A stretch of DNA of 64,000 nt from Desulfomonilia bacterium (GCA_963664325.2 CAXXDQ010000007.1:192001-256000); one strand, 5' to 3'; positions 1,919-56,341 are shown, numbered from the stretch's first letter. The notes: a model not told the origin generated them from the letters alone. Numbers and translations: made by a program.

Positions 1919-3619
1919 ATGGCAAAGAAGAATCCCGAACTCTATCACGAGCAATACCGCAAGCTTCTGTCAAACCAGGCGGACTATGTTGAAAAACATG
2001 CAAAGAGCAAACCTGGTGATATTGCGATCATTGAACATAACACCGGTGAAAAAATAACGTGGAAGCAGTTTAACACATCGGTATCTGCTTTTGCTGCAAA
2101 ACTTCTGTCAATAGGTATAAGGAAGGGGGATATTGTCGCCACTTCCCTGCCATTGTTAAAAGAGCACGTTTATTTGATCTATGCCTGCTACCGCATAGGG
2201 GCGATTGTAGCGCCGCTCGACCTCAGGCTGAAGGCGAAAGAAATCCAGTACTGCATGGACAAGATGAAACCCAAGGCCTATTTTTTCCTGGGCAAGACGC
2301 CCATTGCCGATTTCAGGCCTATGATTGCAGAAGTCATGAAGAACTCGCCCTTTATCAGGCACTGGGTCCAGTTCCAGAAGGAACAGGACATGATAATGGA
2401 GGGGGCTGTAGGCATTACTGAATTTGTGAAAGACATAAAAGCGGTTTATATAAAAAGTCTTATTTTAGGAAGAGTCAAGAAGGCAAGAAAGCTTGTCAGT
2501 AACAGAGATGCATGCCTTATAATTTTCACTACAGGGTCAACCGGGTCACCGAAACCTGCTCTTCTCTGCCATGAAAACATACTGATTCAGAATATAGGCC
2601 TTGCCATATCCTTTGAACTTCAGGAAGGCGACAAAATGCTCATCAACCTCCCGCCGTCCCATGTCGGGTGCATAACGGAGCAGCTTGCAACGACCATATT
2701 CGGCGGGGGGGTAAGTATAATCCTCCATATTTTTGACCCGGTCAAAAGCCTTGAGGCGGTGCAGGAGCACAAGATAAATAACTTGGGCCAGATACCTGCG
2801 CTCTTTAACATGGAGTGGAGACTTCCCGACTACAGCAAGTATGATCTCTCATCACTCAAGTTTGCAATATACGGCGGTCAGGCGGTCACCCGTGAATTCC
2901 TCGAAAAGATGTCAAAGATGGCCTCCCGTATAGGAACCGGACTCGGCCTTACCGAGACAGCGGGCTTCTGCACGTATACCGATGTAAATGCGGGTGTGGA
3001 CGACCTTGTAAAAGGAATAGGATTTGACATGCCTTTATGCCCGATATCGATCCGGGAACCGATGCAGGCGGACGGTGAGGCCGGAAAGGAAAAAGCCAAA
3101 GGCGAAGTCGGTGAGATATGCTTCTCCGGACCCCAGATATTCCTTGGCTATCTCGGAGATGAGGAAAACACACGTAAGACAGTTTCAAAAGATAGAGTCT
3201 GCTATACCGGAGACCTCGGCTATTATGATGCCGACGGCCTGCATTTTGCCGGCCGGTCGAAACTTGTCATAAAACCAAAAGGATACCAGGTCTTCCCGGA
3301 TGACATTGAAAGCCATATTTCAGGCAGGCTTAAGGGAAGGGTAGGCGCAATAGCCGTGATCGGAGTTGAGCATAATATCTTCAGCGAGGGGATCATGGTG
3401 TTTGCCGAAAATATCGACAGTGCGAGCGCAATAACTCCAGATGATGTTTTAAAGGCATGCGATGACATAGCGTCATATTCAAGACCGTCCCATGTGGAAG
3501 TGATCAACCAGGGTGAAATGCCTTTAAACAGGGTGGCAAAAACGGATTATATGGAGCTCAAGAAAAAAGCGAAAGAGATAGTTGAAAAGCTGCGTTCACA
3601 GGGCAAGTGGGACGTCTGA
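1919..3619 (+). CDS. Class I adenylate-forming enzyme (acyl-CoA ligase-like)
   Basis: FTTGSTGSPK P-loop, GLGLTET, YTGDLG and a terminal Lys (RVAKTD). GGAGG RBS. Confidence 0.9.
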   Translation: MAKKNPELYHEQYRKLLSNQADYVEKHAKSKPGDIAIIEHNTGEKITWKQFNTSVSAFAAKLLSIGIRKGDIVATSLPLLKEHVYLIYACYRIGAIVAPLDLRLKAKEIQYCMDKMKPKAYFFLGKTPIADFRPMIAEVMKNSPFIRHWVQFQKEQDMIMEGAVGITEFVKDIKAVYIKSLILGRVKKARKLVSNRDACLIIFTTGSTGSPKPALLCHENILIQNIGLAISFELQEGDKMLINLPPSHVGCITEQLATTIFGGGVSIILHIFDPVKSLEAVQEHKINNLGQIPALFNMEWRLPDYSKYDLSSLKFAIYGGQAVTREFLEKMSKMASRIGTGLGLTETAGFCTYTDVNAGVDDLVKGIGFDMPLCPISIREPMQADGEAGKEKAKGEVGEICFSGPQIFLGYLGDEENTRKTVSKDRVCYTGDLGYYDADGLHFAGRSKLVIKPKGYQVFPDDIESHISGRLKGRVGAIAVIGVEHNIFSEGIMVFAENIDSASAITPDDVLKACDDIASYSRPSHVEVINQGEMPLNRVAKTDYMELKKKAKEIVEKLRSQGKWDV

Positions 3620-3708: not shown

Positions 3709-5301
3709 TTATTTGGGGAAGACCCCGTCAAATATTTGCGATTTATTCACTTCACCGATATTACTCAGTATGAAATCAGATGAGCTGTATATCTTTGCTC
3801 CCGACGATGTTGTCTTTTTAATGCCGACAAACAGCGACTTGAACTCTCCCGGCAAATCGGATGATGTGCCTATTCCATGCATATTGAGCGGTTTGCTGAA
3901 TGTGTATGATGCAATTTCAGTCCAGGTCCTGCCGTCAAAAGAACCTGATGCGGAAAATGTCCTGCATCCGTTCGATATGTCAAGGCGGACAAATGGCGCA
4001 TCATGCCAGGGGATGCCTGAAGGGGTTGCTTCAAAGCCCGGAACAAGTCTGGGCAGCCTGTATCCCCCGGTGCGTATAAGAACGGATAGCGGAAGCAGCG
4101 ATGAAGGCCTGATAATTGCGAAATAAGGAGAATATGGAGAAGAGCTTTCTCTCGCCATGATAAATGCATTTGCGCCCGAATGCGTGAAGCTGTCAGGCAC
4201 TGAAATTATGCAGGACCAGCTTGAGTCTTCATCAGGGGCTTCTTCGTAAAGATAGGTGAATGAATCCGAAAAACAGATGCCGAGTCCCCGGGAATCGGAT
4301 ATCATTCCTATTGTATCCGACTTTTCGGCATACCCAGCAGGTATCCTTTCAGGGTTGTCGATGCATTCGAAGGGATATCCCGCTGCATTAAAGGTGTTGC
4401 TCCAGGGATACTTGATGTAATTTATCTCGTTGATGGCTATCAGGTTCGCCTTCTGGTTTTCCGCATCGGCAAACATCTCTGCACTGTCCGCATAGTAGAC
4501 GCGGCTTACATATCCGGCGTTATAGACCCTTGCGGGTTCGGGATCGTTCTCCTTGTACTCCATATTGAAGAAGACGGAGTCCGCATCATCAAACCCGCCG
4601 GTCACGAAACAAATCATATTTTGGGCATCTTTCCTGTTTTCGCCTGCATATGAACCTTCTGTAGGGACGAATATGAATTTACCCCGAAGTTCATCAAGAT
4701 AAGGCCATCCGCACATATTGACGGATTCCTTGAGCGTTGATGCCTCAGGGCACCTGAGCATAAGATCTGCCGGGGTAAGTATCCATTCCTTCGGTATGTA
4801 AGAGGTGATAAGGGCGTCAAAATCCTTTGGCGTGTGCTTTGCGTCAAAGGTTATATCAAAAAAAACGGTTACGACCTCGTGGTCCGGTATTGCCTCATGA
4901 AAGCCTTTAAGCTGGGAGAGCGCCTGGGAGAAGAGTTTGAAGTTTGTATGCATATCGGCTACATGGTGGTAGACAAGCCAGTCGCCGTCAGGCGCCGCCT
5001 GGAGCTTTAACACAGGCTCTCCATAATTGGTGTGAAGATCATATTCTATGGTTCGCACCCTGTGGTAAATGAGCTGGTCAAGTATGCTCTCATCACGCTG
5101 ATAGGCGTTATGGGAGGCCTTCTGCCTGACCTCGTTATATCTTACATCGATTGACGGTTCCTGTTCTCCTGCTGTTTGAGCAATGGTTTGATTCTCCGCG
5201 TAGATTATAGGGTCATTGATGGTCTTGGTGGATTCCGTCGAGGAACAGCCCGATATTAATAAAAACATGGCCGGAAAAAATATTATAACAAACCTTTTCA
5301 T
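3709..5301 (-). CDS. Lipoprotein with PI-PLC-like phosphodiesterase domain and C-terminal beta-sandwich domain
   Basis: Lipobox LISGC. KASHNAY, RTIEYDLH, VYHH and GWPYLDELRGKFIF are typical of Ca-dependent PI-PLC-like proteins. The C-terminal ASGSFDGRTWTEI region is ConA/lectin-like. Confidence 0.7.
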   Translation of the reverse strand: MKRFVIIFFPAMFLLISGCSSTESTKTINDPIIYAENQTIAQTAGEQEPSIDVRYNEVRQKASHNAYQRDESILDQLIYHRVRTIEYDLHTNYGEPVLKLQAAPDGDWLVYHHVADMHTNFKLFSQALSQLKGFHEAIPDHEVVTVFFDITFDAKHTPKDFDALITSYIPKEWILTPADLMLRCPEASTLKESVNMCGWPYLDELRGKFIFVPTEGSYAGENRKDAQNMICFVTGGFDDADSVFFNMEYKENDPEPARVYNAGYVSRVYYADSAEMFADAENQKANLIAINEINYIKYPWSNTFNAAGYPFECIDNPERIPAGYAEKSDTIGMISDSRGLGICFSDSFTYLYEEAPDEDSSWSCIISVPDSFTHSGANAFIMARESSSPYSPYFAIIRPSSLLPLSVLIRTGGYRLPRLVPGFEATPSGIPWHDAPFVRLDISNGCRTFSASGSFDGRTWTEIASYTFSKPLNMHGIGTSSDLPGEFKSLFVGIKKTTSSGAKIYSSSDFILSNIGEVNKSQIFDGVFPK

Positions 5302-5339: not shown

Positions 5340-5355
5340 AGCAATCACTGTGCCA
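5340..5355 (-). promoter_or_regulatory. sigma54 (-24/-12) promoter of the PI-PLC-like lipoprotein
   Basis: Minus strand reads TGGCACAGTGATTGCT, matching TGGCACRNNNNTTGCW, about 40 nt upstream of the start. Confidence 0.8.
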
Positions 5356-45888: not shown

Positions 45889-46791
45889 TTATGTGGTGTG
45901 AATACCACGTTCGATAAATATTCGTTCATATGCCTTGAGCTGTTCGGGCTTCATGAATTTCTTCATTTTTTCCGGGATAAGGCGTGCTCCTCCAAATTTC
46001 TCCAGTTTGTACGGCCACAACGGATTATATGCAAGCAGCCTGACCCTGTCAAAGCCGCATGAGATAAGAAAATCAGCGACTGCATTAAGGTTAGAGTCAG
46101 TATCGGTAATACCTGGTACAAGAGGTACCCTTGGAAGTATTTCCTTGTCTTTCATATTGGAGAGTACCCTGAAGTTTTCAAGGATATTCTCGTTACTTAC
46201 TCCACAATATCTTTTATGTTCATTGTCGTCTAAAAGTTTGATGTCAAAATATATTTCATCAAGTTTAGGATATATTTTTTCAAGAAATGAGACCATATCA
46301 AAAAAGCCGCAGGTTTCAAGCAAGGTGTGTATCTTGTGCCTTTTCAATTCTGTCAGAAGCTCAGAACAGAAATCCATGAACATGGTCGGTTCTCCACCTG
46401 AAAGAGTAACACCGCCGCCGGATGTATCAAAAAAAGGTTTGTCATTTACAACACACGCCACAATATTTTCAATACTCATGCTTTTTCCTACAATACCGAG
46501 TGCGCCTGTAGGGCAGATGCTTGTGCAGGTAAAACACTCCAGACACCTTGAACGATCAACTCTATGTTTGTCATCATAGGTTATTGCATCTTGGCTGCAA
46601 ATCACTGCACAGGCAAGGCATTTAATGCATTCCTTGCTGTCGAATGAATGTTCGAACCATGGTTTCATGCCTTCCGGATTATGGCACCAGACACATGACA
46701 GGGGACAGCCTTTCATGAAAATGACGGTCCTTATTCCTGGACCGTCATCAAGGGAATTGCCCTTTATTTCGAATATCAGCGGTTTCTTCAT
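45889..46791 (-). CDS. Glycyl-radical enzyme activating enzyme (radical SAM with ferredoxin insert)
   Basis: DDGPGIRT, GCPLSCVWCHNPE, two CxxCxxCxxxC motifs, GGVTLSGGEP. Confidence 0.96.
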   Translation of the reverse strand: MKKPLIFEIKGNSLDDGPGIRTVIFMKGCPLSCVWCHNPEGMKPWFEHSFDSKECIKCLACAVICSQDAITYDDKHRVDRSRCLECFTCTSICPTGALGIVGKSMSIENIVACVVNDKPFFDTSGGGVTLSGGEPTMFMDFCSELLTELKRHKIHTLLETCGFFDMVSFLEKIYPKLDEIYFDIKLLDDNEHKRYCGVSNENILENFRVLSNMKDKEILPRVPLVPGITDTDSNLNAVADFLISCGFDRVRLLAYNPLWPYKLEKFGGARLIPEKMKKFMKPEQLKAYERIFIERGIHTT

Positions 46792-49748
46792 ATACCGTAT
46801 TCGGCCCTTTCAATAAGTTCAATCTGCATGTCATGGTTGAGCGTTGTGAAATATGCATTGTATCCGGAGATCCTGACAAGCAAATGCTGGTAGTTTTCAG
46901 GATTAAGCATGGCATCCCTCAGTGTATCGGTCGAAACGACATTGAACTGCATCTGCATTCCGCCAAGGTCGCTGTAGGTCTTGATATAGGAATAAATGTG
47001 CTCGACAGAGTCTTCATGTGAATCTGCTGCTGAAGGAACGACTTTGACATTGAATGCAATGTTATTATTCATGTTGAGAGGGTCAAGCCCGGAAACATCT
47101 CGGATATTATCAAGCAGGTTCTTCGATGCATGGGCTTCGGGGGTAAGTCCCGGCGTAAAGGCCTTTCCTGAAAGCCTGCCTGACGGGAGCGCCCCTGTCA
47201 GGCTGCCGAAGGCTACATGATTCGACATTGACCAAAATCCCGCCGTATAAGGCCCTCCCCTGAAATTCCTATGGGCACCATAGCAGTCATGAGCAAATTT
47301 TGTTATCCTGTTCGCTATTCCGAGGGCTTCTGACGAGCCTGAGCCGAAAAGCGGCACCTTTTTTCTGGCCATTGCATGAAGAGCCGGATCATTTATGAAA
47401 TTATTCCTTACGGCTTCCTTCATTTTTGTAAAACTTACTTTCTTTTCTTCAAACACAAGTTTTTTTATTACCATCATTGAATCAGTAATGTCAGCAAGGC
47501 CTATACATGCCGCACCGGAAGAGTTATGCTTTGCTCCGCCCTTTGTCATATCAATACCGCTCTTTATGCCATTATCGATAAGGGATGAAATAAAAGGCGT
47601 AGGCCTTATTATGCTGTGAGCCTCACCGAGTATGTTGTTGTATTCAATCGAATTATCAATCAGGAACCTGAACTGATCGGTAAAGGCCTTATAGAAACTT
47701 TCAAAGGAGTCGAAGTCCTCACCAGTTTTAGGTCCGACCGATAGATTCATCAGAGGATGCCGGCCGTTATTAAGCGCCATCTCAAGTGCAGCGACCATAT
47801 TCATCATCATGCAGTTCGTGTGGCCTATATGCTTTCCTGAAAGGGTCGGCTCCACGCAACCTGTTGCCGACCAGTCCCTGAGATCTTCCAAGGGGTAGGA
47901 AAATTCCTCGAGTGATTTCATCACTGCCGTATCGCTGTGGATCGAAGGCGTTGCCGTTGTGATAAGATTTACTTCGGAGAGGCGCCTGAGATAGGTATCA
48001 CTGTTTTTTTCCTTGTTATAGCGGGCGTTGACATTAGGATCTCTTATCCCAAGCATCTCGGTAACCTTGAGGAAAATGTACGTCATGTCATTAACGGCAT
48101 CATCGCCTTCGGGGGTGACACCTCCGAGGGTGATGGCCTGATCGGATGAACTGCCTCCAAAAAGATAATTCCCAATGTCAGGTATTAGCGGGAGATGGTC
48201 TGTGCACCTCATATAGAAACAGCCGACAAGCTCCAGGGCTTTTTTTATGTAGGCCTTCTGTTCATCTATTGTTTTAAGTTTGTCAATGTCAGAGGTAAAG
48301 AAAGGCTGCAGCCACTGATCGAGCCTTCCGAAAGAAAAACCTGCATTCGTGTTTTCCATATGAACACCAACCCATCCGATCCACAAACAATTCACAGCCT
48401 CATCAAGCGTTTCACAGGGATTTTCAGGTACTTTGGAACAGATTTCTGAAATTCTTAATAGCTCTTTCTTCCTTGCCGGATCATTTACATTTTCTGCATC
48501 TGCCGCTGCCTGAAGTGAAAGATTTCTGGCATAGGATGCAAGGCCTTCGAGACAGAGTATCATGGCGTTTAATGTTGCAATTTTTGTTTTTTCTGTTGGA
48601 TCGACATGCAAAAGCTCTTTTTCAATCTCACTTATAATCCCTTTTGTTCCAAGCCTGAAAAGCTTCGGGAAGTCACAGATCGTGTGTGAGAGTGCAACAG
48701 TCTTCCACAGGAAATAGACCGCAAAGCGCTCGTCGAGCTGCTGGCAAAGCGGGTTGTTATATTTTGACCTTACCCATTCCCTGACATTTTTCCTGGCCCA
48801 ATAGGGGAAGACATCATGGTGAAGCATATTTATCGTTTCAACAGACACGTCATACGGGTTCAAGGGCCTGTAAGGCGCTGTCAGCAGTTCACCCCAGATA
48901 AGAGTCCCGCTTGTGTCAGGGTAAATTACTACGCCGATCGGTTTGGTGGTTGTTGTACCTGCTATCAGGTCGTTCTCGGCAATAATGGGTTTCCTGTTTT
49001 CCATCAGATACTTGAATGCATAACCTTGTCTGAGTTCGGCTTCCCAGGCCGTTCCGTCAGGTTTGAATTCAAACCCGTTATTCCTGAAAAATTCGGTCAG
49101 CAGCACGGGTCTTTCAGCACAGATTTCAGGCCTGTGCGAGAAATGTCTGTCAAGTGATGTGCTGAGCCTGGGAAAGTCTTCCAGCGAGTAATGGCTGAGA
49201 TAAGGATCTTCAAGGTGCTTTACACCAGGGTCAATCGACAGGGTTTTCAGTCTGGTCCTTTTTTTCTCAATCGCAACAGGTTTGCAAGTCTTTTGCTTTG
49301 CTTCAGCCTTTTTCACTTTTTCAATCTCCTGAGACCTGAGCATTGTGCTGATCTGCTTGTTTTTCATCAGGACCGATATAAGGAAGTTAAAGACCTGCAG
49401 ATAGCACATATTGCCCTGAGTAATCATGCGGTTTTTAAGTAGCAGGTTAAGAACTTCGTTAGGCGGCAGGTTTATCATCTGCCTGAGCGTTTCTTCATCA
49501 GTAAATACAAGGCTGCAGTCGGCATCATACGGAATACCGTCGTGGACTTTGGCTTTACCGTTTTTAAATGAAATAGACTTGTTTACCGAATTGTTTACTG
49601 TTCTGATTCCAACCGTAAAATCAATCCATCCGTCAACTGAACGCAGGTATTTCCTGATTCCCGGCCTGAGGTTGACATTTGCGGCCATAAGCTTGAGGAG
49701 TATTCCGGCCAGTACGTTTGTCGGCGACTTGAAAATTTCTTTCACCAT
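46788..49748 (-). CDS. Glycyl radical enzyme (eliminase-type Cys loop) with N-terminal SCP2-like domain
   Basis: Cys loop ATGCVEP and Gly loop LVRISGYNAYF. The N-terminal ~125 aa (FKNGKAKVHDG...ADCSLVF...LLKNRMITQGN) resembles SCP2. Adjacent activase. Confidence 0.9.
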   Translation of the reverse strand: MVKEIFKSPTNVLAGILLKLMAANVNLRPGIRKYLRSVDGWIDFTVGIRTVNNSVNKSISFKNGKAKVHDGIPYDADCSLVFTDEETLRQMINLPPNEVLNLLLKNRMITQGNMCYLQVFNFLISVLMKNKQISTMLRSQEIEKVKKAEAKQKTCKPVAIEKKRTRLKTLSIDPGVKHLEDPYLSHYSLEDFPRLSTSLDRHFSHRPEICAERPVLLTEFFRNNGFEFKPDGTAWEAELRQGYAFKYLMENRKPIIAENDLIAGTTTTKPIGVVIYPDTSGTLIWGELLTAPYRPLNPYDVSVETINMLHHDVFPYWARKNVREWVRSKYNNPLCQQLDERFAVYFLWKTVALSHTICDFPKLFRLGTKGIISEIEKELLHVDPTEKTKIATLNAMILCLEGLASYARNLSLQAAADAENVNDPARKKELLRISEICSKVPENPCETLDEAVNCLWIGWVGVHMENTNAGFSFGRLDQWLQPFFTSDIDKLKTIDEQKAYIKKALELVGCFYMRCTDHLPLIPDIGNYLFGGSSSDQAITLGGVTPEGDDAVNDMTYIFLKVTEMLGIRDPNVNARYNKEKNSDTYLRRLSEVNLITTATPSIHSDTAVMKSLEEFSYPLEDLRDWSATGCVEPTLSGKHIGHTNCMMMNMVAALEMALNNGRHPLMNLSVGPKTGEDFDSFESFYKAFTDQFRFLIDNSIEYNNILGEAHSIIRPTPFISSLIDNGIKSGIDMTKGGAKHNSSGAACIGLADITDSMMVIKKLVFEEKKVSFTKMKEAVRNNFINDPALHAMARKKVPLFGSGSSEALGIANRITKFAHDCYGAHRNFRGGPYTAGFWSMSNHVAFGSLTGALPSGRLSGKAFTPGLTPEAHASKNLLDNIRDVSGLDPLNMNNNIAFNVKVVPSAADSHEDSVEHIYSYIKTYSDLGGMQMQFNVVSTDTLRDAMLNPENYQHLLVRISGYNAYFTTLNHDMQIELIERAEYGI

Positions 49749-49802
49749 ACCTACCCCCTGCACATGATTGTTATACGGTGATAAATGATGCACAATTATC
49801 CG

Positions 49803-49833
49803 ATATTAATTAATATGTGTCCAGATATTTGGA
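49803..49833. promoter_or_regulatory. Candidate TetR operator palindromes upstream of the GRE
   Basis: Perfect ATATTAATTAATAT (49803-49816) and 12/14 TCCAGATATTTGGA (49820-49833). Confidence 0.3.
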
Positions 49834-49901
49834 TTACGGCATGAAAACAAGGTTAGGTTATAAATTTACGCTTGAAGAAAATTGGAATGAGCACCGTAAT
49901 G

Positions 49902-50528
49902 CTACTGCCTGTATGAAAGTATGATGTCCTCGATAATCCTTTCAGCCATCATTTCAATTTCCGGCTCGACCTTTTTTAGTCCATGGCCGTTGCAAAGGTT
50001 AACAACACCATTGAGCAGCATCCATATCTTAATCACATTATACATTATATCATCTTCTTCCAGATAAGGGACTGCATCCTTCATGGCCGAAAAGGCAACT
50101 TCAATGACCTTCATGGCGATCTGCCTTTCCTCCTGAACAGCTTTCTCCATATCAGTGCCTGCATAGTCGATATATCTGGACAAATTCCGGCTGAACATTA
50201 TTTCATAGTAATCCGGATTCTTTATCCCGAAGTCTATGAATATTCTGATGATAGCTTCAAGCCTTTGAAGAGGGTCATTATTATTCCTGAATATCTTATT
50301 GATTATCATATAAAGTTTTTCAAAGCCCCGGGCCTGAATAAGAAGATATATTTCATCCTTATTATTGTAGTAGTTATAGATATTGGCAGCTGTCATACCA
50401 AGCCGTGATGCAAGCTTTCTCATGCTCAGATTTGAGAACCCGTCATTCACGATTATATTGAGAGCAGCCCTTAATATCCTGTCTTTGACGCTTAATATTT
50501 CTTCTGCTTTTCTTGCTGTTTTAGCCAT
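49902..50528 (-). CDS. TetR/AcrR-family regulator
   Basis: ILRAAL...GFSNLSMRKLASRLGMTAANIYNYYNNKDEI HTH. Confidence 0.94.
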   Translation of the reverse strand: MAKTARKAEEILSVKDRILRAALNIIVNDGFSNLSMRKLASRLGMTAANIYNYYNNKDEIYLLIQARGFEKLYMIINKIFRNNNDPLQRLEAIIRIFIDFGIKNPDYYEIMFSRNLSRYIDYAGTDMEKAVQEERQIAMKVIEVAFSAMKDAVPYLEEDDIMYNVIKIWMLLNGVVNLCNGHGLKKVEPEIEMMAERIIEDIILSYRQ

Positions 50529-50549
50529 GACGCACCTTCACATGAAAAA

Positions 50550-52550
50550 TTATTTTAAAATTGCTCCAATCGCGAGATAACCTCCGTTCGCCTTAAGCCC
50601 TATAAGTCCCATCTCAAAGACCGGCAAGTCATTACAAATTGCGGCTATCAATTTGTTGTTATCTTTATTCAGTTCTGTCAGAAGCTCTTTGGCCCTGGCA
50701 TCATCAATTACCAGCGGTGTTTTCTCAAGCCAGGGTTTCATGAGTTCAAGTATCTGGGGCATCAGATTTTTAACAGCTCTTTCGATATCAATGGCTTTTT
50801 CAAGACCAAGCCTGTCTGCAAGATAGTAAATATTGAATTCATTGAGCTTCAGATTGAGTCTGAGATAAGGATTGCCACCCTGAAAAAATACTTGTGTTTC
50901 TACTTCCGTAACAAGATCAATGGCGACTTCAAGCTGCTGGCTAGCATTCATGTAAAGGCCTGTTTTCAGGTTTGGCACATAGAGTTTTATTATCCCGTCT
51001 CTGAAATCAAGGAAAGGCGGTCCGCCAAACACAATATCCGCTTTCATGTCGGCTGGAAGTCCGAGGTCGGGCAGAAGCTTTCCGACCTCAAGGCTCAGAC
51101 CGAACCCGGCCTCGTTCAATGCCGCGAGCATGCCGTTTATCGAATCGGCTGATACTGCCAAAGCCATATTATCATCAATCTTTACTGTATCAAGAGCTTC
51201 AGACAGGGTTATTAATGGCGGAAGGCTTATCACACCATTATCCTTACCCGAATTTGATTTTTCTCCAAGACCTGCCATTAATCCGATATTATCTGTTGCT
51301 CCCGTGAATTTTTCCAGTTCCGCGCTAATCGATAAATCCCTTATGCCGAGAATCGAATCAATGAGCTCATTTTTCCCTTTTTCAGGCAGTATGCTTTCAT
51401 CAATAGTAATCGGAGGAATGTTGGTTATTATAAGACCAAGACCTTTCTTATTGACTAAAGTGTTTAGCGCATTGCTGACAATACCCGCAAGCCACCCCTT
51501 AACCGGGAGCTTCATGTAGTATGTATCGGGGCTCAACCCGAGGCCGTCGAGGAAATTTGTCAGTATGATCATGCTGGGGATGTCGGCTTCAAGTTCTTTA
51601 AGGTTGAGATCAAGCGATGAGATTTTCACGACTAATCCATTGATATCCTTTATCCCCATCTTGAGAGAAAGGTCTGCTGAAATGGCATATAGTTCAAGAA
51701 CAACCTTTGTATCTGCAAGACCACCTGGAAATTTAATGTCGCCAAGACTAATGAATTTAATATCAGCTGATATCTCGATCCCTTTGAGATTCATATCGGT
51801 AAAGAGTCTTGCCGTATCGGCATCTCCTGGTTCATTGGCATATAACTGGTTTATCGATACATCAAAACCTGTTTTGATGTTTATTCCCGTCAGCTTCAAA
51901 TCAGCGACAGCCTTGAATGGTTCGGTGATTTCCACCGTTATATAATGGTCCGTATCAAAGTCCTTTTTGCCGACAGATTCATTGAGGAGGTCAGCTATGA
52001 CAGATGTGAACTCAGTTGGCAGGGCAAGTGTGGAGTTGCCTAATATCACTCCCACCGCATTACTTGATTTTGTTCCGGATGCGACACTTGGCCCCCTTAA
52101 TAGTGAAGTTCTGTCGCGACCAGCATATCCCTTCGCATCAATGGCCGAAGCTTCAATTGCTACAAACGGGCTCGAATCAGAAGGCAGAGGTAGCTCGACT
52201 GAAAAGCTGTTGTCAGAAGAAATATGAGCATCCGAACCATTAACAAGAAGTGAAACAATCTTCTGATTACCATTACTGACGGTCCCTGTGACGACTATGC
52301 TCTGCTGGTCCAAACCTATTACCTTCCCGCTTGAGGGGTATGTTATTCTCACAACAGGTGGAACATATCCCTCTGGATAGTTGATGCTGCCTCCCGGCTC
52401 TTCTCCAGTTGGTCCGGCAGTGTATTCAGTCTGTGGTCTGTAATCCTCGGTACCGATTCCCCCCGAACCTGAACATCCCGAAAGCATGCCCAGCAATATA
52501 ATAAAAAGCACTGTATATATCTTTTTTAAAGTCTTTTCATTGTTCCCCAT
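50550..52550 (-). CDS. Lipoprotein with Ig-like domain and probable LBP/BPI (TULIP)-like region
   Basis: Lipobox LSGC. PVVRITYP...VTGTVS...VNG Ig-like domain. Long amphipathic beta-rich remainder (LAVSADSINGML, PPFLDF). Confidence 0.55.
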   Translation of the reverse strand: MGNNEKTLKKIYTVLFIILLGMLSGCSGSGGIGTEDYRPQTEYTAGPTGEEPGGSINYPEGYVPPVVRITYPSSGKVIGLDQQSIVVTGTVSNGNQKIVSLLVNGSDAHISSDNSFSVELPLPSDSSPFVAIEASAIDAKGYAGRDRTSLLRGPSVASGTKSSNAVGVILGNSTLALPTEFTSVIADLLNESVGKKDFDTDHYITVEITEPFKAVADLKLTGINIKTGFDVSINQLYANEPGDADTARLFTDMNLKGIEISADIKFISLGDIKFPGGLADTKVVLELYAISADLSLKMGIKDINGLVVKISSLDLNLKELEADIPSMIILTNFLDGLGLSPDTYYMKLPVKGWLAGIVSNALNTLVNKKGLGLIITNIPPITIDESILPEKGKNELIDSILGIRDLSISAELEKFTGATDNIGLMAGLGEKSNSGKDNGVISLPPLITLSEALDTVKIDDNMALAVSADSINGMLAALNEAGFGLSLEVGKLLPDLGLPADMKADIVFGGPPFLDFRDGIIKLYVPNLKTGLYMNASQQLEVAIDLVTEVETQVFFQGGNPYLRLNLKLNEFNIYYLADRLGLEKAIDIERAVKNLMPQILELMKPWLEKTPLVIDDARAKELLTELNKDNNKLIAAICNDLPVFEMGLIGLKANGGYLAIGAILK

Positions 52551-52583
52551 TTTGAAGCCTCCTCGACGTTTCCTTCACGAATT

Positions 52584-53975
52584 CTAAAATTTGAATTCTG
52601 CGGAAATGCCTGCTGCAAAACCATAGCCGGACAGCGTTATCTGTTCTCCTGTCTCTGCTTTCGTGTAATCCCTGTCGATTAGGTAATGATACTGAACCAT
52701 TGTCTGTATGCTTATGGGTTTGCTCCAGTATCTGCCAGGCTTGTCCCATCTGTTTTCAGTCCCGATGCTGAATATGTGCTTGTCGTTGTCGAGAAAATTT
52801 GTCGTCCCTGTCTGATCGGGAACAGGAGATTTCCAGAATGAATACCCTCCCCTTACAATCATGTCGCCAAGCCATTTGTTTGAATATACTACACCCTTCT
52901 CCACCCCGGCTCTTATATTAAGTACGTCTTTAAAGGACGGGGACGGATCACTATGAAGCACATCAATATATCCGGACCACTGCATCCATGTAAGGTCTGC
53001 ACTCAACCTGAGATCGCTGTCAAACCTGTATGCCGCACCAAAGGCCCATTGCGAAGGTGAATAATAGTGAGCAAAATGGTGGTTGTAATCAAAAGAGATT
53101 GTCAGAGGCTGACCGTCAGGGTTCTGAGGATTCTGGACCCGGACATCGACATGATTGGTGCCATAGTCATCCATGTAAAGCTCATCCCGCCATGACAGGC
53201 CGAATGAAAGTTTTTCATTAGGTTTTATCTGCACTCCCACAATCGGCGAAACTGAGGCTTTGGTTTTCTGGTCTTCCGCTATATCCCCTGTAACACTGAC
53301 ATATTGAGAATTTCCGTTCGGGCCTAGAAAATCTTTAACAATTTCGTTTATTGCCTGCTCGCTTACATAAACAGGGCCTTTGCTGTTTGTTTCAAGTTCA
53401 AGAAGGATGTTAGCGCTGATACCTAGTGACAGCCATTTTACCGGTTCATATCCCAGACCTGCCACAGCAACAAGCCTGTGCAGATCATCATAATAAAAGA
53501 TATAGCGCTCCTCTTCGGGAAGTTGTGTCCTCCACCAGTACAGGCTGTCGGTCGGGATCAGAAAAGTCCCGCCTAATACAAGAGGAGTATTCTCCAGATA
53601 CTTTGAAATGCCCCTGATGTCAGCGCTGAAATTAAATCCGATATTCGTAACCGAATCCTGACCTGAGGGTGTATGTTTTCCATTTATCGAACTGTCAACA
53701 GTTCCTTTCAGATCAAATGTTGAAATGCCGAATTCGCTGGTTAGACCTATATCCTTGAAGAAGTTAATTCCGGTAAGACCTGCAGGGTTTGTGTATGCCT
53801 CAGATCCGTCAAGGGATGACGCAACCCCAGTGCCTGCCATTGATTGAGACCTTATACCAAGTCCGCAGATTTCACCCATCGAAGCATAAAGCATTGCTGG
53901 GAATATTGTATTTGAGATCATGAAAATAATTAATATGGAGGTCTTTTTCACCATGCCTAGAACCTCACCTTCCAT
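52584..53975 (-). CDS. FadL/OmpP1-family outer-membrane transporter
   Basis: GIRSQSMAG...AYTNPAGL, WMQWS, SPVPDQTG.TNFLD, C-terminal Phe. Confidence 0.88.
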   Translation of the reverse strand: MEGEVLGMVKKTSILIIFMISNTIFPAMLYASMGEICGLGIRSQSMAGTGVASSLDGSEAYTNPAGLTGINFFKDIGLTSEFGISTFDLKGTVDSSINGKHTPSGQDSVTNIGFNFSADIRGISKYLENTPLVLGGTFLIPTDSLYWWRTQLPEEERYIFYYDDLHRLVAVAGLGYEPVKWLSLGISANILLELETNSKGPVYVSEQAINEIVKDFLGPNGNSQYVSVTGDIAEDQKTKASVSPIVGVQIKPNEKLSFGLSWRDELYMDDYGTNHVDVRVQNPQNPDGQPLTISFDYNHHFAHYYSPSQWAFGAAYRFDSDLRLSADLTWMQWSGYIDVLHSDPSPSFKDVLNIRAGVEKGVVYSNKWLGDMIVRGGYSFWKSPVPDQTGTTNFLDNDKHIFSIGTENRWDKPGRYWSKPISIQTMVQYHYLIDRDYTKAETGEQITLSGYGFAAGISAEFKF

Positions 53976-55342
53976 GTAATGCCAGTGTTCCAGAGGGTTC
54001 CACCATATTTGACTGATATGCCGCTTACATCCTTGGCTACCTCGGAATCAGGCATGTACTGGCATTGTACATGGAAATCCAGGTCCGAATTCTTGAAGCT
54101 GTATCCGGCGCCTCCGCAAATGATATGGGTATCTCCGTCAATATAATTATAAACTCCTGTCTGTTCAGGAACCGGAGTCGGTCTGTACATGTAGCCGGTT
54201 CTCAATTTTATTTTTTCGGTAACAGAATATTCAAGACCAAGTTTCGGATTCAAAGTGTCTTTGAACTCGGACTCCGGCGTTTCAAGATGAGGTCCTTCAT
54301 ATCCGGACCACTCGGAATACGTAAGGTCAAATGAAGCTGTGATTCTTGATCCCTTTAATCCTATCCCGAACGTATATTCTCTGGGAGAAAAAAATGAATT
54401 GTGAGCAAGATCTACCTTTATGACCGGGATTTTATCCGCCAGAGTCTGGTTGACATTGCCATTCTTGTCCACAGGCAGGATATACAAGTACTGATAGCCG
54501 GTGGAATCAGCGCTTATCTTGTCTCTAAAGCTGAAGCCCAGGCTGAGCCAGTCTATGGGCTTATAGGTAAGACCTGCATAAAGAGCGGCATTGAGAACCA
54601 GTTCCCTGTTTACTGCGACCTTTGCATCGGCGCTGTTGCTGACATCAATATTAAGTTCTTCAATAAGTTTACTCAGGTCGCCGATGTTGTCAACAACGTC
54701 ATTGGTATCAACCTTGAGCGTTATATGGGTATCCGTATCCATAAGTCTGAGCAGGAGCTCGGAACCGATGCCGAGTGAGAACTTATCACCTATGTTCTTG
54801 GAGAGGGCTGCATAAACACCAAGGCCTTTGGCCACATCGTTGTAAACAGGAAAAAAGTAATCTCTTGCAGTTTCCGGGATGTCGATATCAAGTATCGCCT
54901 GTGTGGGAACAAAACAGGAAATGCCGAACATAAAACCTTTCATGTGATGTTCAAGTCTGCCGAGATTCATCACGAGCCCTGCGGTAATGGCTTTTACATT
55001 CTCATCATCTTTTACCACACTACCAGCGCTGTCACTTATTTTAAAGTCAGGCATGACATACATTGCGCCGATGCCTAACTGAAGCCATTCATCTTTCTTC
55101 AATGCGAAATTAAGGCCTGATGGATTGTAGTAAGCGGCAGTGTAATCATCGGAAATCGCCGTCATTGCGCCGGCCATTGAAGAGGCCCTTGAGGAAAGTC
55201 CAAGAAAAGATGCCGTATCAGCTACGGCATCTGTCTGGAAAAATAAAACAAGGAAAAGGGGCAAAAATACGTATTTAAAATAACCGAATAAATCTGGCAT
55301 CCTGTGGCACATACTGTTAACCATGAGCGCAGCCACATACAC
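53957..55342 (-). CDS. FadL/OmpP1-family outer-membrane transporter (start uncertain)
   Basis: SRASSMAGA...AAYYNPSGL, YSEWS, TPVPEQTG.YNYID, C-terminal Phe. Confidence 0.9.
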   Translation of the reverse strand: MYVAALMVNSMCHRMPDLFGYFKYVFLPLFLVLFFQTDAVADTASFLGLSSRASSMAGAMTAISDDYTAAYYNPSGLNFALKKDEWLQLGIGAMYVMPDFKISDSAGSVVKDDENVKAITAGLVMNLGRLEHHMKGFMFGISCFVPTQAILDIDIPETARDYFFPVYNDVAKGLGVYAALSKNIGDKFSLGIGSELLLRLMDTDTHITLKVDTNDVVDNIGDLSKLIEELNIDVSNSADAKVAVNRELVLNAALYAGLTYKPIDWLSLGFSFRDKISADSTGYQYLYILPVDKNGNVNQTLADKIPVIKVDLAHNSFFSPREYTFGIGLKGSRITASFDLTYSEWSGYEGPHLETPESEFKDTLNPKLGLEYSVTEKIKLRTGYMYRPTPVPEQTGVYNYIDGDTHIICGGAGYSFKNSDLDFHVQCQYMPDSEVAKDVSGISVKYGGTLWNTGITWKVRF

Positions 55343-55453
55343 CCTTACAAATATTACAAGCCCCTATCACCCATAAAAAAGCCCATCGGCAACACAACTT
55401 CAAGGTTCTATAACCTCCCCCCTGTAATAACATTGAAACCTATCTCAATTATA

Positions 55454-55469
55454 AGCAACCAGCGTGCCA
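55454..55469 (-). promoter_or_regulatory. sigma54 (-24/-12) promoter heading the FadL cluster
   Basis: Minus strand reads TGGCACGCTGGTTGCT, an exact match to TGGCACGNNNNTTGCW. AT-rich DNA upstream. Confidence 0.85.
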
Positions 55470-55654
55470 CACTGATTATTTTTTAATAATTTAAATTATC
55501 TCCATAACTTGTTGATTTAACGCACTTTAGTTTCAAAAAACATTAAAACAATCGTTTAATTGATAAACACAATCTATTCTGATCATATATCCTTATGAAT
55601 ATTTTTTCTCACATACCCTGCAAATAATTTCTCATCATACTTTTCAGATGCTTT

Positions 55655-56341
55655 CTAAATCCATCCAAGTATCCCCATGAAAACTATAAGGCATATGAGG
55701 TCAAATCCCAGGATTGATCCAACAGTTATGGCTTTTGCCTTTACTGTTTTCATATCATGGACCCAATATGCAACCAGATAGAACGGGAAATATCCAATCA
55801 GCCAGATTATGAACGGGAACTTGATCCTCCACCATGAATATTCCCAGGTAAGAGCATTCAGTGCATTCAAGATGATTTCTATGATAACGCTCAGCGTGGT
55901 AAAGAATATGATGAAGAACCACCTGTTCGGCATCCCAAGGATTTTCATATTCTTGTCTTCAGGCAGGATTATGGTTGTGGCGATTCCAAGTATCAAGAAC
56001 ATGAAGCATATTTCTATGTTCAGCCCGATAAGGATCAGATATGCGGTATCGCCGCCCGGGGCTCCCCATACTGGGGCATACTGGGTAAAATAGAATACGA
56101 GGCCGTTCCATATTTCATTGAACCAGTCCATTCCCCAGAGTGCAAGACCTGCAAAGACTACGCTCCAATTCTTTTTGGCCACCTGTGTGTGGTATATGTA
56201 AATGACCATTACAAGAAATGGTATAACATACCATTTGAACGTTGCCGGGTCTCTCAGAATGCCGAGCGACTGAATCGAATACTGCGTCATGTTGTCCATG
56301 TTTTTGACAATTGATAGAGCCTGTTCGGAAAATCCGTTCAT
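55655..56341 (-). CDS. Polytopic membrane protein of unknown function
   Basis: About 6 TMs, MDWFNEIWN, IGLNIEI. GGAGG RBS. Confidence 0.8.
   Translation of the reverse strand: MNGFSEQALSIVKNMDNMTQYSIQSLGILRDPATFKWYVIPFLVMVIYIYHTQVAKKNWSVVFAGLALWGMDWFNEIWNGLVFYFTQYAPVWGAPGGDTAYLILIGLNIEICFMFLILGIATTIILPEDKNMKILGMPNRWFFIIFFTTLSVIIEIILNALNALTWEYSWWRIKFPFIIWLIGYFPFYLVAYWVHDMKTVKAKAITVGSILGFDLICLIVFMGILGWI

Follow-up and report, generated by a model that had tools for sequence, protein, structure and literature searches.

An SCP2-Fused Glycyl Radical Enzyme Encoded Behind Two FadL Channels and a Lipoprotein in a Desulfomonilia Bacterium: A Candidate Route for Uptake and Radical Cleavage of a Hydrophobic Compound

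Introduction

What does a glycyl radical enzyme (GRE) with a fused SCP2 domain act upon when its gene stands in a row with genes for two FadL-family channels and a lipoprotein? The question is raised by a 64,000-nucleotide stretch of DNA from a Desulfomonilia bacterium (GCA_963664325.2, CAXXDQ010000007.1:192001-256000; here called the window, at its full length), where the minus strand of positions 45889-55469 carries six co-oriented open reading frames (ORFs) that encode, in this order, FadL, FadL, a lipoprotein, a TetR-family regulator, the GRE, and its activase. An earlier note, made from the sequence alone, had proposed that these genes form a dedicated pathway in which a lipid is taken up and relayed to a radical lyase. 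In the reading that we favor, with about as much confidence as doubt, the row, headed by a sigma54-type promoter element, joins a lineage-specific uptake unit (the FadL pair and the lipoprotein) to a TetR/SCP2-GRE/activase module; it likely imports a hydrophobic compound, from which the enzyme would remove the polar head by radical C-O 1,2-elimination.

All characterized GRE eliminases with the CXE motif use small polar or soluble substrates (PMC13450708). Literature searches on glycyl radical enzymes, together with this 2026 review, yielded no paper on an SCP2-fused GRE family; in the review, the word lipid is confined to reference titles, and sterol, N-terminal domain, and uncharacterized do not appear. 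A paper on a limonene GRE (PMC12583861) was set aside, as its available part deals with an X-succinate synthase that is unrelated to the SCP2-GRE.

The SCP2-Fused Glycyl Radical Enzyme

The GRE gene (46788-49793, minus strand) encodes 1001 amino acids (aa), or 986 aa from the likely start codon, an ATG at 49748 that lies 15 codons in and gives the length of the identical database protein P0003. The protein matches PF02901 (E 2.4e-162) and PF01228 (E 7.8e-23), and consists of an SCP2 domain (residues ~16-145), a basic linker (~150-195) and a catalytic barrel (200-1001) with C646-V-E648 and G977. The glycine-radical motif VRISG977YNAY and the cysteine loop GC646VE648P are both in place; among 67 full-length family members, G977 is conserved in 66 and C646 in all. 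The CXE motif on the cysteine loop is common to GRE 1,2-eliminases that break C-O, C-N, or C-S bonds (PMC13450708). The best matches among solved structures were the Archaeoglobus fulgidus protein PFL2 (383 bits), glycerol dehydratase (369 bits) and propanediol dehydratase (352 bits), followed by HpyG, HypD, and CutC.

None of the NCBIfam equivalog cut-offs was reached by the GRE. The PFL2/glycerol-dehydratase subfamily TIGR01774 was missed (478.8 bits vs. 678.2), and identities as HypD, CutC, HpsG/HpfG, PflD, indoleacetate decarboxylase, or HPA decarboxylase were rejected at scores of 200-398 bits against cut-offs of 1000-1150. A glycerol or propanediol dehydratase was rejected by the TIGR01774 cut-off and by a substrate pocket that differs at six of the nine positions first compared. 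An X-succinate synthase (BSS/MAS) was rejected as well: TutD and MasD matched at 197-218 bits, over the C-terminal 600 residues only. No ORF of at least 80 aa that could encode a beta or gamma subunit separates tetR from the GRE gene or the latter from the activase gene; the search did not extend to smaller ORFs. The earlier note had made its proposal depend on a GRE outside the characterized small-substrate enzymes and had described a CVE loop of the 1,2-eliminase type, and both points hold: score and pocket separate it from those enzymes, and C646-V-E648 is found in all 67 members.

In glycerol dehydratase, Glu435 deprotonates the hydroxyl at C1 and His164 protonates the leaving hydroxyl at C2 (PMC13450708). 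A HMMER alignment against glycerol dehydratase indicates that the GRE retains the cysteine, the glutamate, and the leaving-group histidine as C646, E648, and H370. At four further positions, polar residues of the glycerol pocket have given way to smaller or hydrophobic ones (N156F, H281A, S282G, Y640W), and two more positions are changed (Y339D, D447N); on a wider list, 14 of 18 positions differ. Within the family, the pocket is nearly invariant: F361, H370, G485, S548, S550, Q552, C646, V647, E648, H658, T659, W854, and M856 occur in 67 of 67 members, F853 in 66, D551 and N660 in 65, and A484 in 63. Such uniformity makes it very likely that the predicted SCP2-GRE family has a single substrate specificity, of the type "hydroxyl next to a protonated oxygen leaving group." The replacements suggest that the space taken by the third hydroxyl of glycerol has been opened and made greasy, and the kept histidine, together with the aldehyde-handling gene neighbors described below, points to cleavage of a C-O bond with formation of an aldehyde, not to C-N or C-S cleavage.

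The SCP2 fusion, too, was part of the earlier proposal; it is borne out by the fold and not by Pfam, in which no SCP2 family matched the GRE at E ≤ 0.01. An AlphaFold2 model of the first ~130 residues, built from 41 family sequences, had predicted local distance difference test (pLDDT) values of 86-94 for model residues 11-90 and 72-89 for residues 91-130 (mean 76.8). Foldseek retrieved 37 matches to this model from the PDB at E ≤ 1e-3 (best 5e-6); all among those listed were SCP2 proteins or SCP2 domains of the alkylsulfatase type, including UbiJ-SCP2, human SCP-2L, AF1534, and the SCP2 domains of the alkylsulfatases SdsA1 and Pisa1 and of YjcS-type relatives. The structure prediction thus confirms that the N-terminal ~130 residues fold as SCP2.

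Comparison with the nearest known systems brings out what is particular to this enzyme. It resembles the B12-independent glycerol dehydratase of C. butyricum (1R8W/1R9D; E 5e-109) and 1,2-propanediol dehydratase (5I2A) in the ten-stranded barrel, the glycine and cysteine loops with CVE, the histidine for the leaving hydroxyl, and a dedicated activase with two extra Fe-S clusters. It differs from them in the added SCP2 domain of ~130 residues and its linker, in the altered pocket, and in gene neighbors of lipid type without microcompartment genes. The PFL2 protein of A. fulgidus (2F3O; E 3e-113) has the CVE loop and the histidine in common with the SCP2-GRE, but consists of 776 aa without an SCP2 fusion; at the positions of N660 and W854 it still has the Asp and Tyr found in glycerol dehydratase, and Val, Gln, Ala, and Asn stand in place of F361, A484, G485, and D551. 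These pocket differences indicate another specificity and rule out PFL2, described in the review as a GRE of unknown function (PMC13450708), as an isofunctional relative. The alkylsulfatases SdsA1 and Pisa1 offer a parallel for the domain fusion, since their catalytic domain is likewise fused to an SCP2 domain, which recruits the alkyl chain; structures with bound 1-decane-sulfonic acid or 1-dodecanol match the N-terminal domain of the GRE (E 5e-5 to 1e-4). In contrast to the GRE, a radical enzyme with N-terminal SCP2, the alkylsulfatases combine a hydrolase of metallo-beta-lactamase fold with a C-terminal SCP2 domain.

The enzyme could still act on an ordinary small polar substrate, with the SCP2 domain serving only for membrane tethering, oligomerization, or regulation. 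The small polar substrates of every characterized CXE eliminase (PMC13450708) speak for this explanation, and the basic linker behind the SCP2 domain could simply hold the enzyme at the membrane. Since Phe, Trp, Ala, and Gly, fixed throughout the family, stand where glycerol dehydratase has polar pocket residues, since no equivalog cut-off is reached, and since microcompartment or small-molecule transporter genes do not recur nearby, we consider it very unlikely.

The window's genome contains one SCP2-GRE and two GREs of ~800 aa without SCP2. In three other genomes of the window's genus (G001, G002, and G003) and in further genomes of its family, the SCP2-GRE exists in two or three diverged copies, with identities to that of the window of, for example, 83, 45, and 42%; their matches all begin near residue 16-33 of the window's enzyme.

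The TetR-GRE-Activase Module in Other Genomes

The SCP2-GRE family is large. A word-based protein search gave 1036 proteins at E ≤ 1e-20; the 120 of them that were listed were 64-100% identical and nearly all 973-1025 aa long (one had 837 aa). In a GTDB set with one genome per species, 407 stretches from several phyla encode a relative. ORFs were called and clustered for the best 80 of these 407 stretches, and neighbors were identified by Pfam on one representative per cluster; the resulting counts come from related, non-independent genomes and represent recurring themes, not statistics. The 80 loci belong to Deltaproteobacteria-type lineages (Smithella, Syntrophaceae, Desulfomonilia, Myxococcota, and others), Actinomycetota, Chloroflexi, Spirochaetes, and one member of the Bacillota; across phyla, the enzymes are 61-83% identical to that of the window.

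The GRE of the window is followed, with a 4-nt overlap, by the gene for a GRE-activating radical SAM enzyme of 300 aa (45889-46791, minus strand; TIGR02494, 284.9 bits vs. a cut-off of 174.35) with a CX3CX2C motif (CPLSCVWC) and two ferredoxin-type four-cysteine clusters. The GRE gene is preceded by the gene for a TetR-family regulator of 208 aa (49902-50528, minus strand), with an N-terminal helix-turn-helix domain (PF00440, E 7.5e-11) and PF13305 (E 1.6e-8). A co-oriented TetR homolog stands directly upstream of the GRE in 36 of the 66 loci with at least 800 nt of upstream sequence, and an activase directly downstream in 53 of the 66 loci with at least 1 kb of downstream sequence; by these gene orders, TetR-GRE-activase is the portable core of the family. 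An 11-bp palindrome, TAACA-N-TGTTA, occurs near the start of tetR in 24 of 37 TetR-bearing loci (L007, L023, L040, L049, L053, and L075 among them), sometimes doubled at 14-nt spacing, and nowhere else within the carrier loci; it lies 5-48 nt ahead of the listed tetR start in 23 loci, and within an upstream-extended ORF in L074. Its placement marks it as the likely TetR operator.

The genes that accompany this core elsewhere have a common theme which, judged by predicted function, is aldehyde handling and fatty-acid-type (beta-) oxidation. Extended (12 loci) and classical (16 loci) short-chain dehydrogenases/reductases (SDRs) are encoded immediately behind the activase; genes for aldehyde:ferredoxin oxidoreductase (AOR) with ferredoxin, for acyl-CoA synthetase, for an acyl-CoA dehydrogenase of 622 aa, and for thioesterase, glycerol kinase, and MlaE are each found in 5-12 related deltaproteobacterial loci; and in Spirochaetes, Fe-ADH is encoded directly upstream of the GRE (a cluster in three loci). 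A GDSL lipase, an alpha/beta hydrolase, and a PETase-like esterase appear as single cases.

The same survey bears on a second alternative, that the SCP2-GRE works outside any feeding pathway, in the remodeling or synthesis of membrane lipids of its own cell (removal of a head-group hydroxyl would be an example), while the porins serve another purpose. The high conservation of the family across phyla and its fixed pocket would suit such a role; often only TetR and activase accompany the GRE, a GRE match is present in 33 of 36 genomes of the window's family (many starting at residue 33 or earlier), and one Myxococcota locus has genes of the 2-hydroxyacyl-CoA-dehydratase type after the GRE. The TetR control and the AOR, acyl-CoA synthetase, and acyl-CoA dehydrogenase neighbors look catabolic, however; the two or three diverged copies in several genomes are as expected for an expanding substrate range, and lipid-synthesis genes do not recur beside the GRE. 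A role in the cell's own lipids is therefore highly improbable.

The FadL Pair and the Lipoprotein

Upstream of tetR, the row in the window contains the genes for two outer-membrane channels and a lipoprotein. The first channel (53957-55342, minus strand) is a FadL/OmpP1/TodX protein of 461 aa from a GTG start (PF03349, E 2e-22, 79.7 bits), and the second (52584-53975, minus strand) a FadL-family protein of 463 aa (PF03349, E 6e-13, 48.5 bits). With a cut-off of 29.7 bits both belong to the FadL family, as the earlier note had said; they are ~28% identical to each other, and neither reaches an NCBIfam equivalog (FadL, AupA). The six genes lie behind an exact sigma54 consensus with small gaps or overlaps and a larger gap before the GRE, which also agrees with the earlier description: the two FadL genes overlap by 19 nt, gaps of 33 and 21 nt precede and follow the lipoprotein gene, 108-153 nt separate tetR from the GRE, and GRE and activase overlap as described. 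The arrangement recalls the operons for hydrocarbon and fatty-acid degradation in which FadL, TodX, or TbuX, all members of PF03349, precede catabolic genes for a hydrophobic substrate. Unlike these, it has tandem diverged paralogs, a large lipoprotein, and a sigma54 site, and is joined to an eliminase-type GRE, not to an oxygenase or X-succinate synthase.

The lipoprotein (50550-52550, minus strand; 666 aa) has a signal peptide ending in the lipobox LSGC, a Gly/Pro-rich tether, an Ig-like domain at residues 65-150, and then ~500 residues without an assigned fold. It has 13 relatives among 5.8 billion proteins, all at least 58% identical; when 12 members were searched against Pfam at E ≤ 1, the Ig-like domain alone was found in all 12, and PF01273 and PF02886 in none. 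An AlphaFold2 model from 12 close relatives consists of two blocks of long strands followed by helices; because its pLDDT is only 39.6, it does not establish the fold. Foldseek matches to this poor model are dominated by Ig domains, with CETP and BPI at E 0.01 (probability 0.2-0.3, root-mean-square deviation ~31 Å). In a language-model (Atlas) search, residues 150-666 scored 0.92 to a bacterial cluster in which 57% of the members carry PF02886 (LBP_BPI_CETP_C).

Just upstream of the sigma54 site lies the gene for an AF_1327-family polytopic membrane protein of 228 aa (55655-56341, minus strand; Atlas score 0.96 to PF27271 clusters). The order AF_1327 protein, FadL, FadL, lipoprotein, TetR, GRE, and activase, with small gaps, is shared with the three congeneric genomes and with the loci of the two nearest genomes (L005 and L012); FadL-2 is 86-88% identical in G001-G003, and among 60 relatives examined, a full-length lipoprotein gene adjoins the GRE in these three genomes. 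A metagenome scan with the lipoprotein as query found two more divergent cases on short contigs: one (L084) with a FadL end, the lipoprotein (58% identical), TetR (64%), and SCP2-GRE (65% over 220 aa), the other (L085) with an AF_1327-type protein (87%), FadL, FadL, and the lipoprotein (57%). At this lipoprotein identity, the joined gene order has evidently outlasted considerable divergence.

The AF_1327 protein, a possible inner-membrane partner, keeps its place ahead of the FadL genes in L005, L012, and L085; in L085, it is far more similar to its counterpart in the window than the lipoprotein is (87 vs. 57%). It is encoded in 7 of 81 loci, four of which, in Spirochaetes (L041, L045, L046, and L050), have it within a flank of up to 10 kb from the SCP2-GRE. 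With the TetR proteins of L005 and L012, the TetR of the window shares only 53% identity, and with that of L084, 64%; for comparison, the GRE (83%), FadL-2 (86-88% in G001-G003), and the lipoprotein (76-79% in G001-G003) are all far closer.

Promoters and Regulation

The sigma54-type -24/-12 element, TGGCACGCTGGTTGCT, lies at 55454-55469 (minus strand), 111 nt ahead of FadL-1, and corresponds to the exact consensus. The exact pattern TGGCAC-N5-TTGCW occurs twice in the window, against 0.05 expected occurrences, and none of 100 shuffled sequences reached two; with one mismatch, the pattern is found four times against 2.5 expected, which is not above chance. In L005 and L012, TGGCACGCTGGTTGCT is kept at the same place within an otherwise variable spacer. 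The genome encodes 16 strong PF00158 matches to enhancer-binding proteins, and has an rpoN gene (G000 contig C4:719189-720563, L086) between lptB-like and hpf-like genes.

A sigma70-like promoter, TGGACA-17-GATAAT (10 of 12 consensus positions), lies in the gap between tetR and GRE (49795-49823, minus strand), where no terminator is predicted. A conserved promoter in this gap, in combination with the missing terminator, suggests that transcription of the GRE may start at the sigma54 promoter as well as at its own sigma70-like promoter.

Further elements were noted nearby. An inverted repeat, ATATTC-N17-GAATA(T/G), at ~55575-55603 (minus strand), ~110-150 nt upstream of the sigma54 site, is part of a block conserved in the window, L005, and L012, and could be the enhancer or a repressor site. 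The second exact sigma54 consensus, TGGCACAGTGATTGCT, is at 5340-5355 (minus strand), 38 nt ahead of a gene (3709-5301) whose product of 530 aa has a phospholipase-C-like domain of PI-PLC-C1 type (E 2.5e-12); just past this gene, 1919-3619 on the opposite strand encodes an AMP-binding, acyl-CoA-synthetase-like protein. TGGCACAGTGATTGCT may mark a second lipid-related sigma54 target. On the 3' side, the row is followed by rpsF-rpsR-DUF2232-rplI-dnaB; a sigma70 consensus, TTGACA-17-TATAAT (12 of 12 positions), at 46024-46052 (minus strand) within the 3' end of the activase gene faces rpsF and is probably the promoter of this ribosomal-protein operon.

Are the Uptake Genes and the Enzyme One Unit?

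Several observations weigh against a single uptake-and-cleavage unit. Co-occurrence of GRE homologs with lipid transporters, on which the earlier note had let its proposal depend, is largely wanting: among the 41 family loci with at least 6.5 kb of upstream sequence, the FadL pair and the lipoprotein are found in two, L005 and L012, whose GREs are 83% identical to that of the window. Since both loci come from the window's genus, the link between the trio and the GRE goes back to a single event of evolution and did not arise repeatedly. The family also occurs in monoderms of the Actinomycetota, Chloroflexi, and Bacillota, usually without an adjacent transporter. Conversely, in a 97% complete genome from another genus of the window's family (G009), the trio FadL-FadL-lipoprotein (53, 27, and 36% identical) is followed by genes for a small beta-barrel protein and an 867-aa protein of no assigned function, and no SCP2-GRE is present at E ≤ 1e-100; in another genome (G004), genes for an ammonium transporter and asparagine synthase come after the trio. 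A BPI/TULIP-like fold of the lipoprotein, moreover, is a reasonable lead but not a result.

Regulatory features weigh against such a unit as well. The hexamers of the predicted sigma70-like promoter are invariant in the window, L005, and L012 while their flanks vary, and this promoter allows independent transcription of the GRE. A PF00158 search of the window found no gene for an enhancer-binding protein. In the assembly, rpoN appears frameshifted: the 426-aa frame ends early, and the RpoN box (ARRTVAKYRE) is in an overlapping 54-aa frame. The frame change could be either an assembly indel or a real lesion, and touches every sigma54 site of the genome. Finally, the palindrome TAACA-N-TGTTA is absent from the window (which has two unrelated one-mismatch matches only), L005, and L012; in all three, tetR follows the lipoprotein gene by 21 nt, and it is here that the palindrome is missing.

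A third alternative is that of two independent modules that happen to lie side by side: the trio would be a general outer-membrane unit for hydrophobic nutrients or surface-lipoprotein handling, and TetR-GRE-activase, with its own promoter, would act on a substrate that needs no such import. The trio without a GRE in G009 and beside unrelated genes in G004, the conserved promoter ahead of the GRE, and the porin neighbor that is mostly missing in the GRE family are as this alternative would have it, and the porins have weak NCBIfam matches of PorV/BamG type. A second tandem FadL pair elsewhere in the window's genome (G000 contig C3:717585-720252; L083 7487-13695) fits as well; these channels are 28-31% identical to FadL-2 and are encoded directly behind a 1105-aa protein without Pfam family, and the same pair exists in G001-G003. 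Together, G009, G004, and the second pair suggest that this lineage reuses a combination of a large secreted protein with two FadLs, which was coupled once to the GRE module. Across 80 family loci, a hidden Markov model (HMM) built from six FadL copies had no additional FadL match at E < 1, although diverged FadLs could escape this model.

On the other side, tetR, the GRE module's own regulator, lies 21 nt behind the lipoprotein gene without a promoter-sized gap, which ties at least the regulator to the uptake genes; the joined order persists down to 57-58% lipoprotein identity, and the tetR-GRE gap has no predicted terminator. We consider two unconnected modules rather unlikely. The neighborhood of FadL, lipoprotein, and TetR predicted to be conserved with the GRE proved syntenic in the genus and on two divergent contigs, but is absent as a general rule. 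For the dedicated pathway from lipid uptake to lyase, the hydrophobic substrate and the unusual GRE eliminase find support in the SCP2 fold, the pocket, and the neighbors elsewhere; the six-gene unit has its support in the synteny of a single narrow lineage, and both G009 and the internal promoter weaken the case for it.

Proposed Mechanism and Substrate

If uptake unit and enzyme module do work together, as in the reading that we favor, an alcohol-type lipid that is insoluble in water would be picked up at the cell surface by the lipoprotein and the FadL pair and cross the outer membrane with their help. Once it is in the cytoplasm, its alkyl part would be held by the SCP2 domain, which would bring the head group into the GRE barrel. 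After the activase has placed the radical on G977, C646 would abstract a hydrogen from the carbinol carbon, E648 would take up the hydroxyl proton, and H370 would protonate the adjacent leaving group (OH, O-alkyl, or O-acyl), with an aldehyde as the product. In other lineages, the aldehyde might be taken over by the products of adjacent AOR, Fe-ADH, or SDR genes and then enter beta-oxidation. The TetR protein would sense the lipid or its product.

None of the substrates named in the earlier note (alkylglycerol ethers, monoacylglycerols, sphingoid bases, sulfonolipids) is favored over the others by direct evidence. For the class of substrate, our best guess is a lipid with a free hydroxyl beside a C-O bond, such as a 1-O-alkyl- or acyl-glycerol, a diether core lipid, a long-chain 1,2-diol, or an alkyl ethoxylate. 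Glyceryl ethers in particular are an unlikely choice. In a more far-reaching version, glycerol ether lipids of necromass or prey (alkylglycerols of bacteria or diether cores of archaea) are gathered by a BPI-like surface lipoprotein and the two FadLs, and the SCP2-GRE breaks the ether C-O bond beside a free hydroxyl to yield a fatty alcohol and an aldehyde. This would be the first route from outer membrane to cytoplasm for a radical cleavage of membrane-type lipids without oxygen, with the same enzyme and its fixed pocket at work in hundreds of sediment and subsurface species; the version is decidedly doubtful. A link to sphingoid bases or sulfonolipids through divergent aminotransferases was discarded, as these score as HisC-like and not as alpha-oxoamine synthases.

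Conclusion

The window is the one context that ties the SCP2-GRE family to dedicated outer-membrane uptake genes, and in this respect argues for an external, water-insoluble substrate. The candidate operator TAACA-N-TGTTA is a practical handle for finding the inducing ligand in related loci that carry it. If the ether-lipid version were true, it would explain an oxygen-free turnover of ether lipids. More generally, a GRE built for a lipid would bring membrane-type substrates within reach of radical C-O cleavage, and could fill a gap in the oxygen-free degradation of ether lipids, long-chain diols, and non-ionic surfactants.

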